In this document: piece after piece, positions 1,974 to 60,387 of the stretch | How the letters are laid out: each line of letters begins with the position of its first letter | How positions within the stretch are numbered: position 1 is the first letter of the stretch | Source of the DNA: an uncultured Gemmatimonadales bacterium | GTDB lineage: Bacteria; Gemmatimonadota; Gemmatimonadetes; Longimicrobiales; Gaopeijiaceae | DNA length: 64,000 bases | NCBI GenBank assembly: GCA_963809895.1 | Contig: CAWELD010000003.1 | Location: 2,208,001 to 2,272,000 of the forward strand | Direction of reading: 5' to 3' | Position numbers and translations under genes: made by a program | Notes under the pieces: generated by a model | The model's input: only the letters and a program-made list of their open reading frames with translations | The model's database searches: none | What the model was told of the DNA's origin: nothing

Positions 1974-2070
1974 CCAAGCGGAGCTTCGTCGTCTCTTCGG
2001 CCGATCTGGTACGGCCCTTGCCTCTCTCATCGTCGCAACGACGAACGCAATGAGAAGAGGAGAACGTCCG

Positions 2071-2472
2071 ATGAAGACCACGGGTAGCCTCGCAGCCGCC
2101 GTGCTGCTCACCGGTGTCCTGGCCATTCCGGCCGCCGCGCAGACCACCACGAATCGAGCCCACCAGGAGGCACAGGTCAGGGCTGAACTCCGGGAGCTGG
2201 CAGCCTCGCCCACCGCGGCCGATCACGATCGCGCCGAGGTGCAGCGCTTTCTCGCCAACGACCGGGTTCGCGACGTGGCCGCGGACATGGGGATCGACCT
2301 GCACGCGCTGCAGGACCGTGTGGCCACGCTGAACGATGCCGACGCTGCGGACCTGGCGTCTCGCGTCAGGAACGCCAACGAGGCGCCCATGGCGGGTGGT
2401 GACACCTTCGTCATCACCTCCACCACGATCATCATCGTCCTGTTGATCATCATCCTGATCGTCGTGGCGTGA
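2071..2472 (+). CDS. Secreted PA2779-like protein with Gly-Gly motif followed by a hydrophobic C-terminal tail
   Basis: Signal peptide (MKTTGSLAAAVLL...PAAAQ), helical core, ends PMAGG-DTFVITSTTIIIVLLIIILIVVA; GTGA overlap with the downstream C39-like peptidase. Confidence 0.7.
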   Translation: MKTTGSLAAAVLLTGVLAIPAAAQTTTNRAHQEAQVRAELRELAASPTAADHDRAEVQRFLANDRVRDVAADMGIDLHALQDRVATLNDADAADLASRVRNANEAPMAGGDTFVITSTTIIIVLLIIILIVVA

Positions 2473-4398
2473 CCACCTCGCCGGCCACCATGGCCCTGGC
2501 GGCGGCGCTCCTGATCGGAGGGTCGACGCCCGGGCCGGCCGTGGCTCGACCGCCCATCGACTCGCCCCTCGCCGATACGGCATCGGAGGTCGAGCTCGAC
2601 GTACCGTACCTCACACAGGGTCCCCTGCTCTGCGGGGGCGCCGCCGCCGCCATGGTCGAGCGTTTCTACGGAGCTCGCGGGGTCTACGCCGAGGACTTCG
2701 AAACGCTGGTCCGCCCTACCGAGGGTGGCATCCGCACCGACGACCTGGCGCATGCCCTTCGCGCCCGGGGCTACCAGGCTCGGGTCCGCCGCGGAAGCCT
2801 GACCGCTGCGCTCGAGGCCCTGGACCGGGGTTCGCCCCCGATCCTCCTGCTGAGCACCGGCAACGAGCGCCTCCACTACGTGGTGCTCGTCGGCTGGAAC
2901 GGGGGCACGGCGCTGGTGCACGACCCGCTGCTGGGCCCCCGGCGCCGGATCGCCATCGAGCGCCTCGCATCCCAGGCCCGAGCCACGGACTTCTGGACGC
3001 TGGTCGTCCAGCCGGACACGGGATCCCTCCCGACGGCCTCAGCCGGACCTGCGGTGGCCCACGCGGCGTCCAACGAACTGGAGCCCGGCCCGCTGTTGAA
3101 CGCCCTGGCGGCGCTGCGCGCCGGGCACCAAGACCTGGCCGAAGCCGAAGCGCGGGCCCAGCTCACCCGTTCTCCCAGCGGCCCGCTTCGCGATCTCAGC
3201 TGGCAGCTCATCGCCACGGCCCGCTTCCGAGAGGGCCGCCACGACGCGGCGCTGGACGCGTGGAACCGTCTGGGTGAGCCCCGCGTCGACCTCGTGGTGC
3301 TCGACGGGCTGGAGCATCTGCGATGGCGGGCGGTGGCGGGGCGGCTGCCCCTCCGGCACGGAGACACGCTGCGTGCCCGCGATCTGGCGACCGGACGCCG
3401 CCGCCTCTCCGCCGTGCCGGGGATCGTGTCGTCCCGCCTCGACTACCAACCGCTCGTGGACGGCACCGTCGAGGTCCGGGGCTACGTCGCCGAGGCCGGA
3501 CGCTGGCCGTCGACTTCGAGGATCGGGGCCGAGCTGGTGGGAGCGGTGATCGACGAACGCGCCTCCGTGAGCGCGGGTCCTTTTCTGTCGGGCAGCGAGC
3601 GCTGGCGGCTGTCCGGCCAATGGCTCGCGGCCGACGCGGCCGCCAACCTCACCGTGACGGGCCCTGCACCGCCCCTGCCCGGCATTGCCGCGGTCACGCT
3701 GGCCTGGGAACGCCAGCGCTTCGGCCTGGACGGCGTGGAGGCCGGCGCCGAGGAGCGCATCCGTGGCGTCGCCTCGCTGGGCGAGTGGATCGGGCCCGCG
3801 GACCGGGTCGAGGGGCGACTGGGGCTGGAACGTTGGGATGACCGGGGCCGCAGCGTCACGGCCGGAGGCTCGTTGCGTCACGTCGTCACGCCCGGTCGCC
3901 TCGGCTCGGAGCTCTCCGCCGATGCGTGGACCGGCGCCGTGCACGCCGCGAGGGGCCGCTTCGGGCTCGATGCGCGCCTGCCGCGATCAGGGCGCGAATG
4001 GCGCCTGGGCGTCCGGGGTACCTGGGCCAGCGACGGGAAGTCCACGCATGCTCTGGGACGGGGCCGGCCTCGGGGTCGTGCGAAGCCCCCTGTTGCGTGG
4101 CGTCCGGCTGGTGCGCGACGGCAGGATCGACGGGCCGGTGTTCGGACCACGGCTCGTGCAGGCCTCGCTGGAGCACACCTTCCTCCGCCGTCTGGGCCCG
4201 GTGCGGGCGGGCATCGGCCTGTTCGCGGACGCGGCCCGGGCGTGGGGGAGCGTCGCGGGCGATTCGGGATGGCGGGGAGCGTGGGGCGTGGAGCTCGAGG
4301 GCGTGCTCGACGACCGCCGCATGGCACTCAGCCTCGGCACCGGTGCCGGCGACTGGATCGTATCACTGCGTCTGGGCTCGGTGCACCGGCTCTACTAG
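2469..4398 (+). CDS. C39-like cysteine peptidase fused to helical/POTRA-like and predicted beta-barrel regions (one frameshift near 4035)
   Basis: LDVPYLTQ..LCGGAAAAM (Cys), LHYVVLVG (His), VHDP (Asp). Reading continues in ORF 3685..4398 after an apparent extra G in 'gacgggaag'. C-terminal half has alternating amphipathic strands. Confidence 0.7.
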
Positions 4399-5421
4399 CC
4401 CCCGGCGCGCCCCGCTCCGTTCCGTCGCACGAACGACCAGGCCGGCGACCCACCAGATCGCGACCACCAGCAGGCCCACGACGTAGCCATCCACTGCGTA
4501 GTGCCACCCCAGCGCCACCGATCCGAGAAAGACCATGGCTGCGTACGTGCCCGCCACGGCGCCCAGCCAGAGCCGCGTGCGGGCGGCCCCGATGGCGATC
4601 AGGAACATGGCGCCCACGTGAATCGACGGCATGGCCGAGACGCCGCCACCCGTGAGCACCGTGCCCGACGCCTGGGCGCGCCAGAGCTCCGTCTGAAGCC
4701 GTCGGGCCGTGAGACCCAGGGCGTCCATGTGCTGGATGAGAGGACCGAAGGGATCGGGTTGGCCGGTGACGGACCGAAAGTACACGGGCCCGGCCGATGA
4801 AAAGAGGGTCGCCAGGATCGTCCCCCCGAGGACCCACAGAAGGGCGATGGACAACAGGAAGCGACCGCGCACCCTTCCCGGACGACCGAACACCGCCACG
4901 GCGATGCCGAGGCTGAGCACGGGATACCAGAGGAGATACGACGCGTCCAGCGCCCGCAAGGCGACGTCCGGAAGGTGCATGAGCGCCAGGCCAGGCTCCC
5001 CTCCGTGAAGGGTCACGTCCCAGCGATGCAGCGCCACGTCCCACCGATAGGGGCGCCCCATGAAGAGCCGCGGCTTGAGCGCCAGGAAGATGGCGAACAT
5101 GTGGGCCATGGCGATCCCGCCCACGGCGCTGGACGCCAGGCGCTCCGGCTCGGCCAGCCCGACGCCCCGACCGTGCCGGGCGAGGATGGCGTCGGCCCCG
5201 GCGAAGGCCGCCACCATGCCCAGGACCAGTGCTCCCGTGACCACCAGGGGACGCGCGACCGGGCCGAACGTCCAGCGCAGATACAGGTCGAAGAGGACGA
5301 CGATCACCAGGAGCGGCGCATGGCGCCACAGGACCGGGACCAACGTGCTTCGCGTCCCTCGTATCGCCGCGACGAACGAAGAACGCCGACGCCTCAAGGA
5401 CGGGACGCCACGGTCCGGCAA
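4363..5421 (-). CDS. PAP2-like (PAP2_3) multi-pass membrane phosphoesterase
   Basis: SSAGPVY, SAMPSIHVG and SVALGWHYAVDG motifs; several hydrophobic helices; start uncertain. Confidence 0.8.
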   Translation of the reverse strand: MPDRGVPSLRRRRSSFVAAIRGTRSTLVPVLWRHAPLLVIVVLFDLYLRWTFGPVARPLVVTGALVLGMVAAFAGADAILARHGRGVGLAEPERLASSAVGGIAMAHMFAIFLALKPRLFMGRPYRWDVALHRWDVTLHGGEPGLALMHLPDVALRALDASYLLWYPVLSLGIAVAVFGRPGRVRGRFLLSIALLWVLGGTILATLFSSAGPVYFRSVTGQPDPFGPLIQHMDALGLTARRLQTELWRAQASGTVLTGGGVSAMPSIHVGAMFLIAIGAARTRLWLGAVAGTYAAMVFLGSVALGWHYAVDGYVVGLLVVAIWWVAGLVVRATERSGARRGLVEPVHRAQTQ

Positions 5422-6380
5422 GAGGCGCCGGGCAGGACCGGACAGGCCGCCACCATGGTGGCACCCTCCTTCCAGTCCCTCACGCGCAGGACCCGCGTCC
5501 GCGTCGCTTCGCGGCCGTCTTCCGCGTCGGTGACCCTCACGACCAGACGGTAGTACCCCTCGTCCAGGGGCGCGTCCACGCGCCGCAGCTCCCTGAGCAG
5601 TCCCCCGGCGTCGGAGGCGGCCTGGCCCGTGAAGCTCACGCGCACCACCCGCTCGTGGGCGCGCGGACGACCGGCTGCGTCGATGGGCGCGAACGAGACC
5701 TCGGTGGTGTAGCGGTGGTCCTTCGGGAGGTTGTACACCTCGTAGAACACGTCGAAGGTACCGCTGGGAAAGTCGTTGCTGGGCAGGAGCGCCAGCGTGG
5801 CATCCCCCCGCCTCCAGCCGTCTACGCCCCCGGGCAGACCCAGCGCGATGTCGCTGAGCATCAGCCGGCTGCCGCTGTAGTCGGGAATCACGAACGGATG
5901 CGTGTAGAGCTGACCGGTGCCCGGATTGGGCGCGTCGATCATGATGACCCGCTGCACCGTGGTGGACGACGGCCGGGCCTCGGTCTCGATGTAGGTGTGC
6001 AGGAGGTGATCGTCGTCCAACGGCCGGTCACGGGCGACGAAGACCGAGTCGTCGGTGCGTGACACGCCGCCGAACGCCGTGTCGGCCAGCACCAGGGACA
6101 CGTTGAACCGGTAGCGGTAGTCCCCGTCGACCTTCTCCCGGTTCAGACGCCCCACAGGCACCGCGAACGAGGCGACCACCGTCGTGCTCCCACCATCTCC
6201 GCGAAACGTGTACAGGTCGTAGAAGAAGGGGAGCGCCCGCCAGGGGACGGCGTGGGGCCGGACCGGCATCACGCCTGGGCCTCCGACGTCCAAGCCGGGC
6301 GACGACGGGGTGGATCCCGTGGTCGCCGCGACCGTGGAGGCCGTGAGGATCAACATGAGGGATGCGGCGGATCGTACCAT
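5394..6380 (-). CDS. Secreted hypothetical protein with Ig-like beta-rich domains (resembles C-terminal part of GWxTD proteins)
   Basis: Signal peptide; LMLSDIAL, VFYEVYNL and GYYRLVVRVTD segments. Confidence 0.55.
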   Translation of the reverse strand: MVRSAASLMLILTASTVAATTGSTPSSPGLDVGGPGVMPVRPHAVPWRALPFFYDLYTFRGDGGSTTVVASFAVPVGRLNREKVDGDYRYRFNVSLVLADTAFGGVSRTDDSVFVARDRPLDDDHLLHTYIETEARPSSTTVQRVIMIDAPNPGTGQLYTHPFVIPDYSGSRLMLSDIALGLPGGVDGWRRGDATLALLPSNDFPSGTFDVFYEVYNLPKDHRYTTEVSFAPIDAAGRPRAHERVVRVSFTGQAASDAGGLLRELRRVDAPLDEGYYRLVVRVTDAEDGREATRTRVLRVRDWKEGATMVAACPVLPGASCRTVASRP

Positions 6381-11160: not shown

Positions 11161-12938
11161 ATGCGTACCTTCCTCATCGTCAGCCTGGTGGCCACTGCCT
11201 GTGCCCTTTCGCCGCCGCGGCGTGCCGCGGCCCAGAGCGCGGCGGCTCGATCCGACCCACCGCCGGCCATGGCGGCCTACCAGCGCCTGGCTCGGGAGAC
11301 GATCTCCGGCGAGCGCGCCAAGGACGTGGTGGCGTTCATGGATCACTGGTTCCGCCTGCCCGGGAACCACGGGTTCGATGCTTCGCTGGAGCGCGTGGTC
11401 GCGGCGCTGGAGGAGGCGGGCTACGTCGAGGAAGGGAGCACCGACGCCGGGACTGCCGGTGGTGCCCTGACCTATCGGCTGGAGCACCGCCCGCTCGAAC
11501 GGCCCACGTGGGAGCCCGTCTCCGCCACGCTCACGCTGGGTGGGGCCGACGACGCCGCTGCTCTCCTGGGCCACGAACCGGAACCTGGTGGCCATCAACT
11601 CCTATTCGACGCCGACCGGAGGGCGTCGAGGCCGAGGTGGTGGACGTGGGCGCGGGCGACGAGGCGGGCTTCGAGGGCAAGGACGTGGCGGGGAAGATCG
11701 TCTTCGGCGAGACGTCCGTCGGGCGGCTCTTCGCGGAGGCCGTGCAGAAGCGGGGCGCCCTGGGTGTCCTGGCGTACCGGATCCCGGCGTTCAATCACCC
11801 GGAAGAGCACCCGCACGTCATCTCCTTCTCCTCGATCCCCCAGGACTCGGTGGCGCGCTCGTGGGGACTGCTGCTCTCGTACGCGGCGCGAGAGTCACTG
11901 CGCGACGCCTTGCGCGCGGGTCCGGTGCGGGCACGCGTTCGCGTCGAGACTCGCGTCTATCCATCGGAGGAGCTGACGCTGGTGGCGGAGGTCCGGGGCA
12001 CCCGCGAGCCGGACGAACGGTTCGTGTACAGCGCCCACGTGCAGGAGCCCGGCGCCAACGACAACGCCACGGGCGTCGCCGACCTCTCGGAGGTCGCCCG
12101 CACGCTGGCCGCTGGCGTGCGCTCGGGCGTCGTTCACGCCCGCACGCACCATCACCATGATCTGGGGCGACGAGATCTCCTCCACCCGCCGTTATCTCCA
12201 GGAGGACTCCGTGCGCGCGCAGGGCGTGCGGTGGGGGCTCAGCCTGGACATGGTGGGCGAGGACACCGACAAGACCGGAGGCACCTTCCTCATCGAGAAG
12301 ATGCCGGACCCGTCGGCGGTGTGGACGCGGGGCGACGACCATCACACGGAGTGGGGCGGGAGTCCCATGACAGTGGACCAGCTCACCCCGCACTACTTCA
12401 ACGACTTCGTCCTCAACCGTTGCCTGGACCAGGGCGCGGACAACGGCTGGGTCGTGCGGACGAACCCCTTCGAAGGCGGAAGCGACCACGTCCCCTTCCT
12501 CCAGGCCGGAGTCCCCGGGGTCCTCTTCTGGCACTTCACCGACGTCTACTACCACACCGACGGCGACCGCGTCGGGATGGTGTCGCCCGTGACCCTGAAG
12601 AACGTGGGGGTGTGCGCCGCCGTCTCGGGGATGACCCTCGCCTCGGCCGACGAGGACGTCGCGTCGTTCGTGGTGCGGCGAGACGGAGAACGCCGCCCTG
12701 GACCGCCTCTCACGGGAGGAGGCGCTGAGCCGCGCCGCAGTGGCCGGAGGGCGGGGATCCCGCGGAGCAGCGCCGCATCCTGGAAGCGTGGGCGAGCTGG
12801 TACGACGGCGCTCTGGCCCATACCAGCGAGGTTCAGGTCGGTGGTTCGTCGGCCGCGGTGATGGAGTTGATCCGCAATGCGCGAGCGCGGGTCGCGGAGG
12901 CCGGACGACAGGCGGTCGCGGGGTTGGGAGGAGCCTGA
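11161..12938 (+). CDS. M28 family metallopeptidase with PA domain, split by several frameshifts
   Basis: Signal peptide, DVAGKIVF (PA), SAHVQEPGANDNATG, IWGDE, SLDMVG, GGSDHVPF and YYHTDGD spread across ORFs 11161+, 11540+, 11103+, 12157+; stop TGA at 12936-12938. Confidence 0.85.
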
Positions 12939-58712: not shown

Positions 58713-59494
58713 CCGAACCGTCCCGTCACGTAGGCCTCGGTACGCTCTTCGCGCGGATTCGTGAAGATGGTGTCCGTAGGGCCGTACTCGATGAGCTCGC
58801 CCATGTAGAGGAACGCCGTGTAGTCGCTCGACATCGGGCGGCCTGCTGCATGCTATGGGTAACGATCACGATGGTGTAGTCCTTCTTCAACTCGTAGATG
58901 AGCTCCTCGATGCGCTGGGTCGCGATGGGGTCCAGGGCGGACGCGGGCTCGTCCATGAGCACGACCTCGGGCTTCACCGCCAGGGTGCGGGCGATGCACA
59001 GCCGCTGCTGCTGACCTCCGGAGAGGGCGTAGGCCGAGTCGCCCAGGCGGTCACTCACCTCGTCCCAGAGCGCGGCCTGGCGCAGCGACGCCTCCACGAT
59101 TTCGTCCAGATCGCCCTCGAAGCCGTTGACCCGGGGGCCGAAGGCGGTGTTGTCGTAGATGGACTTGGGAAAAGGGTTGGGCTTCTGGAACACCATCCCG
59201 ATGCGGCGTCGCACCTCCACCGGATCGACGCCCGCGTCGTACAGGTTCTGCCCGTGGAAGAGGACCTCGCCCGTCGATGCGCGCCGACTCCACCAGATCG
59301 TTCATGCGGTTGAAGCAGCGCAGCAGGGTGCTCTTGCCGCAGCCCGACGGTCCGATGAGCGCGACCACCTGGTTCGCCGGCACCACCAGGCTGATGTCCT
59401 TCACGGCCTGCTTGTCGCCGTAGTAGACCGAAAGGTCGCGAGCTTCCAGGGCCGGCGCGCGGCCCCCGGTATCGATGGCGTGGATGGTGGGCAT
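58709..59494 (-). CDS. pstB: Phosphate ABC transporter ATPase (frameshifted)
   Basis: [31 protein letters not shown], ends YVTGRFG; split over three frames. Confidence 0.92.
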
Positions 59495-60387
59495 CTATCG
59501 ACGCTGCTCGTAGCGGTTGCGAAGCAGGATCGCCACCGCGTTCATGGACAGGAGAACGGCCAGCAGGACCAGGATTCCCGCCGCGGCCAGGTCGCGGAAC
59601 TCGGCCTGGGGCCTGGAGACCCAGGTGTAGATCTGGAGCGGAAGCACCGTGAAGGGGTCCATGACGCTCCCTGGGCGTGAAGGCGAGGAAGCCCACGGCG
59701 CCCACCATGATCAGGGGAGCGGTCTCACCCACCGCTCGGGACAGCGCCAGGATGGTCCCCGTCAGGATCCCGGGCAGCGCCATGGGGAGCACCTGGTGGC
59801 GCACCACCTGCCAGCGCGTGGCCCCGAGCCCGTACGCCGCCTGCCGGATGGAGTCGGGCACGGCCCGGATGGCCTCCTGGGCGGCCATGATGATGACCGG
59901 CAGGATCAACAGCGACAGGGTGAGCGCCCCCGAGAGGATGCTCCGCTGGAAGCCCAGCGCCCGCACGAAGACCGCCAGCCCCAGGATGCCGTACACGATG
60001 GACGGCACGCCCGCCAGGTTGGCGATGTTGGTCTGGATGACCCGGGTGACCCAGTTGCGGGGCGCGTACTCCTCGAGGTAGATGGCCGCGCGCCACGGCC
60101 AGACGGGAAAGCGAGAACAGCGCCGTCAGCGTCAGGATCCAGATCGGTCCCGACGAGGGCGGCCTTGACCCCCGCCCGCTCCGGGAAAGCGCGAGGCGAA
60201 GCTGGTGAGGAACTGTGCGTCCAGCCATGCGGAGCCCATCGTGCGCCACGTCGGCCAGGAGCACGACCAGGGCCACCACGCCCACCAGGGTGGCCAGGCC
60301 GCACATCACGGCGAAGAGCACCCCTTTCACCCGGCGCACGCGATCCCGGCGGGGCCGCCTGCCCCAGCGTGTCGGCACCGCGCTCAT
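59495..60387 (-). CDS. pstA: Phosphate ABC permease PstA (frameshifted)
   Basis: [21 protein letters not shown]. Confidence 0.9.

Follow-up and report, generated by a model that had tools for sequence, protein, structure and literature searches.

Introduction

Two overlapping genes in a 64,000-nucleotide stretch of a Gemmatimonadota genome (the window, hereafter) raise the question of why a cysteine peptidase should share one polypeptide chain with an outer-membrane barrel, and what it would do to the small protein encoded directly upstream, which carries a double glycine ahead of a hydrophobic tail. A preliminary description of the locus had proposed that a C39 peptidase anchored in its own barrel cuts the partner at Gly-Gly, either releasing the soluble domain or maturing the tail, by a route independent of ABC transporters. 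A Gly-Gly ahead of a hydrophobic C-terminal segment, beside a C39 peptidase, is a feature of the PA2779 family. PA2779 itself is called hypothetical in the accessible part of PMC3985676, and the accessible part of PMC4104836 distinguishes ten Omp85/TpsB subfamilies, patatin and metallo fusions among them; from its main text, to the extent available, the words ‘peptidase’, ‘C39’, ‘cysteine’ and ‘TPR’ are absent. No description of a C39-TPR-POTRA-barrel architecture was found in the literature searched, most subscription papers lying outside the reach of that search. Here, we describe a widespread two-gene envelope module that joins the PA2778/PA2779 pair and the enzyme-Omp85 fusion.

Results

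Organization of the two-gene locus

The product of gene 1 (Table 1) consists of a signal peptide, a helical domain, an M-A-G-G motif and a hydrophobic tail, and in translation its C-terminus reads M-A-G-G followed by DTFVITSTTIIIVLLIIILIVVA. Both genes overlap at GTGA (2469-2472), with the GTG start codon of gene 2 spanning the stop codon of gene 1. The translation therefore agrees with the initial reading of a signal-peptide protein with such an ending, coupled to a second gene. Against PF20332 (Pfam) the gene 1 product scored 24.1 bits, under the cut-off of 27. Its model, a monomer prediction (pLDDT 75.5), is helical throughout, including the tail; no match was found with Foldseek at E<=0.001, and a wide structure search returned generic helical-bundle matches only (best Z 9.4), so the modelled structure points to neither a known nor a new fold.

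With regard to the surroundings, the open reading frame upstream of gene 1 is, as we take it from its motifs, PEP carboxylase-like. On the opposite strand, a gene for a PAP2_3-family membrane protein (4363-5421; 63.3 bits against a cut-off of 27) runs towards gene 2, overlaps its end and is not a conserved neighbour of the pair, and a 328-residue secreted-looking protein (5394-6380, also on the minus strand) had no match in Pfam or NCBIfam.

Table 1. Features of the two-gene locus and their positions in the window.
Feature	Position	Strand	Basis or remark
Shine-Dalgarno-like AGGAG	2058..2062	+	8 bases 5' of the gene 1 ATG; from the sequence
Gene 1, PA2779-family (DUF6627-like) partner, 133 aa	2071..2472	+	NF033919, 50.5 bits (cut-off 40)
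Likely Sec signal peptide, gene 1 residues 1-23, ending AAA before Q	2071..2139	+	By inspection
M-A-G-G double-glycine site, predicted cut after G110	2389..2400	+	GG itself at 2395-2400
23-residue hydrophobic Ile/Val/Thr-rich C-terminal peptide, basic end absent	2401..2469	+	
Gene 2, ~642 aa if read through the frameshift	2469..4398	+	Starts at GTG
C39 cysteine peptidase domain, Gln50-Cys55-His136-Asp152	2595..3014	+	Profile match and residue conservation; Q50, C55, H136 and D152 at 2616, 2631, 2874 and 2922
TPR-like helices	3087..3266	+	Profile search, homologue model, window mapping
Single POTRA domain	3282..3494	+	Model strand-helix-helix-strand-strand; aligns with TamA/BamA from residue ~255
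Predicted Omp85-type beta-barrel, long loop ahead of last five strands	3558..4380	+	LR motif 4093, FxD 4222
Frameshift, with one extra base relative to a related contig	4033..4037	+	Probably an assembly error

A C39 peptidase in one chain with a predicted Omp85-type barrel

From the N-terminus onwards, the gene 2 product comprises a signal peptide (judged by eye; a basic n-region is absent), a C39 peptidase, TPR helices, a POTRA domain and the predicted Omp85-type barrel, with ABC domains absent. PF13529 (Peptidase_C39_2) matched its first 522 residues at 30.9 bits (cut-off 24) and matched all 72 family members tested, and a profile search retrieved ComA (E 3e-7) and LahT (6mpz, E 0.003). A homologue search gave 140 matches among 8000 scored candidates, and 117 of the 120 matches listed were 580-720 residues long. 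The catalytic Gln and Cys were present in 115 of these 117 listed full-length homologues, the other two having gaps, and His and Asp in all 117. The NF033920 model (the PA2778 equivalog) scored 30.3, far under its cut-off of 150.

Confirmation of the POTRA domain and the barrel came from P0005, an intact homologue with 47% identity to the window protein, and not from the broken window protein itself. The model of P0005 (pLDDT 92.1, pTM 0.89) shows the C39 domain, the TPR helices, one POTRA and a barrel, the latter with 15 strand elements from residue 357 plus a short one in the loop; one element of 17 residues is probably two strands. Foldseek returned BamA/TamA at E about 1e-12. Residues 254-634 aligned to TamA (8us3) with Z 26.6 and an rmsd of 4.7 over 348 residues, and the barrel alone to 4n74 with Z 24.4 and an rmsd of 3.0 over 270, BamA as well as CdiB (Z 24.4) and FhaC (Z 24.1) following closely. 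On the strength of this model, the C-terminal part of gene 2 almost certainly folds as an Omp85-type barrel, as had been anticipated. At the sequence level, a profile search gave weak matches to the BamA POTRA, and with PF01103 just four of 72 members matched at E<=0.05 (the best at 9e-6), which explains why the source annotation reads only ‘C39’ or hypothetical. A C-terminal aromatic residue is absent from the main family, R or P being last in 77 of the 117 listed homologues. Taken together, domain order and residues confirmed the combination of C39 triad, TPR-like helices, POTRA and barrel in one chain that had been read from the letters.

The frameshift that had been suspected near 4035 was located at 4033..4037. 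It is real in this assembly, because the frame after 4036 matches the C-termini of the homologues: 120 residues from that point match 92 of the 117 listed full-length homologues, with identities of up to 64%. The first-frame reading, which runs to 4655, was discarded as an artefact of the frameshift. The extra base is probably an assembly error, and a true frameshift, which in this genome only would make gene 2 a recent pseudogene without the last five barrel strands, appears unlikely. Both halves of the gene are conserved and other lesions are absent; one 151-base contig from a related strain (nine other letters, depth 2.1) is one base shorter at 4033; and a crude scan, which missed the 4033 junction itself, found 200 frameshift-like junctions among the 4641 coding segments of the 11-contig assembly. 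In addition, near-identical contigs in RNA run X1 cover parts of both genes, although this is no proof of transcription. In favour of a pseudogene, rpoB and rpoC are intact in the genome and no same-strain read spans 4033; runs X3 and X5, whose contigs are short, gave none over 3850-4250. Other frameshift-like junctions in the window lie at ~12120, within a peptidase-like gene (11161-12728, plus strand), and at ~59670 and ~59270, within 58863-60089 (minus strand).

Pairing of the two genes and conservation of the Gly-Gly motif

Pairing was counted in the best 80 of 372 confirmed loci in GTDB genomes, retrieved with a search pattern that selects peptidase-bearing forms. The partner gene lay directly upstream in 77 of the 80 loci and downstream in one, and a contig end cut the other two. 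No third conserved gene or ABC exporter recurred among the neighbours of the pair, in line with the proposed ABC-independent locus. No partner match was found among plasmid records. Within the phylum of the window the distribution is patchy, the barrel being carried by 32 of 401 genomes, and 136 of 351 genomes of an acidobacterial class match the profile, partial matches counted.

After removal of 17 duplicate loci and four without a readable tail, 91 partners from peptidase-bearing loci remained. All of them carried GG (90) or GA (1), and the full [LVMIF][AVSITG]G[GA] motif was present in 85, 21-26 residues from the C-terminal end, the remaining six having Q or H at -4. An alignment of 88 partners (A2) had G always at -2, G or A at -1, Leu at -4 in 88% and a small or aliphatic residue at -3; positions -7 and -12 are D/E and R/Q, respectively, so the classical Leu-7/Leu-12 are absent. 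Both the pairing and the Gly-Gly, whose conservation the preliminary description had left to a survey of homologues, thus hold in peptidase-bearing loci.

Composition of the tail

The share of I+V+T was 0.58 in 111 tails, compared with 0.30 (sd 0.09) in 956 hydrophobic segments of the window genome; it reaches 0.73 in the window tail, a value matched by none of the 956. Hydrophobicity is at transmembrane level (mean KD19 3.08). K or R occurs within the last four residues of 26 of the 91 peptidase-bearing tails, of none of 23 peptidase-free ones and not in that of the window. Between peptidase-bearing and peptidase-free partner groups, tail identity was 0.49 and leader identity 0.24, the high tail value coming partly from low complexity. 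No other protein of the window genome carries the tail, and a sorting signal with many substrates was therefore rejected.

Barrels and partners that persist without the peptidase

At least 57 of 401 genomes of the order matched the family, with at least 24 full-length forms, at least 21 barrels without C39 and at least 12 weak C39-only matches, these genome counts being floors from a stricter first look. The peptidase-free barrel proteins of the order begin at the TPR. Their partners were readable at 23 loci, one further locus being cut: the full L-A-G-G-type motif was found in 0/23 and any GG in 7/23, and the hydrophobic tail was kept in 23/23. Cleavage at Gly-Gly gains comparative support from this, since loss of the peptidase goes together with decay of the motif. 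In five closer peptidase-free pairs, dN/dS was 0.23-0.35 for the barrel and 0.18-0.39 for the partner, compared with 0.11-0.28 and 0.04-0.30 in seven peptidase-bearing pairs; one distant peptidase-free pair (L124/L131) gave 0.55. These ratios indicate that barrel and partner remain under purifying selection after peptidase loss.

Peptidase-free rows of the Gemmatimonadota fell into two lineages and a single loss was not rejected (p-AU 0.22; 39/105 rows), so that the 23 loci represent one or two events. Thirty atypical loci fetched from the survey of the acidobacterial class (351 genomes) contributed five more peptidase-free ones. In a quick 53-row tree (LG+G4), 15 peptidase-free rows appeared in three places and one clade was rejected (p-AU 0.004), for a group set by domain content and tested once the tree was seen. 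Judged from this tree, barrels without a peptidase are found in two or more separate regions of it. Among the five acidobacterial loci, L165 alone has an adjacent partner, with Q-S-G-G, in which GG is kept and the -4 Leu lost. In three of the five genomes, with completeness not given (G957, G1019, G1051), a search for the partner found none, which weakens a strict dependence of barrel and partner on each other. Conversely, 12 loci had a GG-less partner and no barrel nearby.

Several of these loci differ in context. L164 and L166-L168 are stand-alone (TPR)-POTRA-barrel genes with neither peptidase nor adjacent partner, L167 and L168 also being without TPR. The peptidase-free barrels at L124 (1618-3291) and L131 (988-2541) have a lipoprotein-like Cys after the signal and are followed by a gene for a glycine-zipper protein, and such genes also lie close to L108, L146 and L149. 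Near-identical partners occur with a barrel gene (L121) and without one (L149).

MlaE is encoded after the barrel in 5 of the 24 peptidase-free loci, and in 7 of the 14 partner loci that have no barrel the next genes are mlaE-F-D-like; no MlaE was found near peptidase-bearing loci in the 1.5-4 kb examined. GG-less partners, some accompanied by a peptidase-free barrel and some not, stand directly before mlaE-mlaF-mlaD-like genes at L005, L006, L008, L121, L125, L139-L141, L144-L146 and L149. The MlaE-F-D neighbours of the peptidase-free versions hint at a link to lipid traffic, and shared inheritance may explain the adjacency, which occurs in related genomes of one family.

Split and divergent forms in Acidobacteria

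The acidobacterial survey also contained a clade on a long branch, whose K[DE][TG]C-type peptidases are either fused to the barrel or split from it. At 11 loci, a peptidase gene of ~150 residues precedes a separate TPR-POTRA-barrel gene, each product having its own hydrophobic N-terminus, and the barrels of these split loci end in Phe. A peptidase that is separable from the barrel and has a hydrophobic N-terminus of its own fits a periplasmic enzyme. The partners of the divergent clade mostly lie elsewhere in the genome, as was seen in all five genomes searched, one of which gave as many as six matches. In place of LAGG, these partners have DP[AV]AG or DVAAG; across the sequences compared, peptidase type and partner motif vary together.

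Members of this clade have a terminal Phe and stand mostly beside recA (L153-L163, L169, L171-L176, L182), and several AG-type partners follow a DNA polymerase I-like gene (L185, L187, L192). L177 and L178 are lone KDTC-type C39 genes, with barrel and partner absent within 5 kb, and L184 and L186 are partner homologues with an acidic, aromatic C-terminal extension beyond the tail (DDYYDDYWDDCWCY-like).

Discussion

Relation to known systems

Gene 1 belongs to the PA2779 family (NF033919; Pfam DUF6627): its product has GG ahead of a hydrophobic C-terminal segment, and a C39 peptidase with TPR is encoded next to it. Gene 2, in comparison with PA2778 (NF033920, a model of 255 positions), adds a POTRA and a barrel of ~380 residues, and the window family additionally has peptidase-free and split forms. 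PlpD, patatin-like and ‘Metallo’ Omp85 proteins likewise combine an enzyme with a single POTRA and an Omp85 barrel on the same chain, but gene 2 has C39 and TPR instead of a patatin or metallo domain, and a dedicated, co-encoded partner. The analogy with PlpD as a type Vd system, drawn at the outset, stands for the enzyme-POTRA-barrel fusion and falls for secretion, since the enzyme domain of PlpD stays periplasmic according to the accessible part of PMC11116518. TamA and BamA, the best structural matches to the POTRA and barrel, share the L6-type LR motif and FxD; the gene 2 family differs from them in its single POTRA, fused protease, 13% identity, patchy distribution and the absence of a TamB or Bam lipoprotein neighbour.

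The C39 fold and triad, the GG/GA site and the hydrophobic -4 are shared with PCAT/AMS systems (ComA, LahT; MAM of Faecalibacterium). In the accessible part of PMC6363468, a characterised C39 domain needs a hydrophobic residue at -4, and classical double-glycine leaders have a hydrophobic -4, Leu-7 and Leu-12. The window pair, in contrast, has no ABC transporter and neither of these leucines, and because both of its proteins have signal peptides, cleavage would follow export, unlike in PCAT/AMS. MAM offers a loose parallel, being an envelope protein proposed to be processed by double-glycine cleavage in the part of PMC12184118 available. GlyGly-CTERM proteins likewise combine Gly-Gly with a C-terminal hydrophobic segment on an exported protein. 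In their case, as stated in the accessible part of PMC6219818, basic residues follow that segment, whereas most tails of the window family lack a basic cluster, there is one substrate per genome instead of many, and the enzyme is a soluble cysteine peptidase and not a rhomboid, as rhombosortase is.

A working model and its alternatives

The reading that we adopt, tentatively and at a little under an even chance as a whole, is that a C39 peptidase, anchored in the periplasm by the Omp85 barrel to which it is fused, releases a hydrophobic peptide for the barrel to place in the outer membrane. Both proteins would cross via Sec, and it is highly probable that they do so and that the peptidase stays periplasmic; the location is taken from the analogy with PlpD (PMC11116518, accessible part) and from the split forms. 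TPR-POTRA would capture the partner, whose helical domain would serve as leader or chaperone, and the C39 domain would cut after Gly-Gly in the periplasm, freeing the 23-residue peptide; cleavage between G110 and D111, predicted from the motif, is likely. The barrel would then place the freed peptide in the outer membrane, and in lineages without the peptidase it would act on the partner uncut. Since selection maintains both barrel and tail where the peptidase has been lost, maturation or insertion of the tail fits better than release of the soluble domain, and we lean slightly towards the tail being the product; that the barrel inserts it is possible but somewhat doubtful. As peptidase loss leaves the tail and TPR-POTRA-barrel in place, the module probably serves above all to bring the tail to the outer membrane, and leader removal is probably an optional step. 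Against this, we count that the tail is modelled as a helix, like an ordinary membrane anchor, that GG is kept in 7 of 23 peptidase-free partners and in L165, and that the independent acidobacterial loss yields one partner only. The six peptidase-bearing partners with Q or H at -4, the three genomes in which a peptidase-free barrel has no partner, the 12 GG-less partners with no barrel nearby, the dN/dS of 0.55 in L124/L131 and the missing Leu-7 and Leu-12 also weigh against it.

The main rival is shedding from an inner-membrane anchor. The partner would be tail-anchored in the inner membrane and the cut at GG would free its ~85-residue helical domain as an active product or signal, the barrel merely tethering a periplasmic protease as in PlpD, whose enzyme domain is periplasmic (accessible part of PMC11116518). 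The helical model and transmembrane-level hydrophobicity of the tail (mean KD19 3.08) speak for it, as do the partner-less barrels, the barrel-less partners and the loci in which protease and barrel are separate genes. What makes it unlikely in our judgement is that, once the peptidase is lost, selection still acts on barrel and partner and the two remain neighbours, needlessly for a mere protease anchor; moreover, a basic end is found in only 26 of the 91 peptidase-bearing tails and in none of the 23 peptidase-free ones, tail composition differs from that of ordinary membrane helices, and the leader is less conserved than the tail. Export in the manner of two-partner secretion, in which the POTRA-barrel would move the partner or its helical domain across the outer membrane once the protease has removed the tail, would account for a one-to-one co-encoded partner, as for TpsA/TpsB, and for the similarity to CdiB (Z 24.4) and FhaC (Z 24.1). 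We regard it as improbable, because TamA scores about 2 Z higher, the partner is helical without a TPS domain, peptidase-free forms would be unable to release the domain, and there is one POTRA where two are the norm for such transporters. It is still less probable that the partner serves the barrel protein as a stable subunit, plug or assembly chaperone, with GG a flexible hinge or inhibitory pseudo-substrate and the protease directed at other targets. A main family without a terminal aromatic residue (R or P last in 77 of 117 listed homologues) might need assembly help, and the partner does stay with peptidase-free barrels, but L-A-G-G decays once the peptidase goes, KDTC-type peptidases pair with DP[AV]AG/DVAAG partners located elsewhere in the genome in up to several copies, and partners persist without a barrel.

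Beyond our preferred reading of tail delivery, a more specific scenario, which we consider unlikely in its full form, casts gene 2 as an Omp85 insertase devoted to a single small ribosomal peptide. The helical leader would keep the Sec-exported precursor soluble until TPR-POTRA catches it, and the Ile/Val/Thr-rich 23-mer, clipped at Gly-Gly by the periplasmic C39 domain of the barrel protein, would thread through the lateral gate of the barrel and assemble in the outer membrane as a beta-structured pore, fibre or surface coat. The helix that the monomer model gives for the tail speaks against a beta structure. If the scenario is true, double-glycine maturation would here proceed with no ABC transporter, and an Omp85 protein would have a peptide as its client.

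With regard to the wider family, an Omp85 architecture not met in the literature searched comes here with one named client, where most uncharacterised Omp85 subfamilies have none, and the role of enzyme-barrel fusions becomes directly testable with two genes, for which the natural fused, split and peptidase-free forms are ready controls. The pair also offers a handle on the function of PA2778/PA2779, in a module that is frequent in soil and sediment groups that have received little study.
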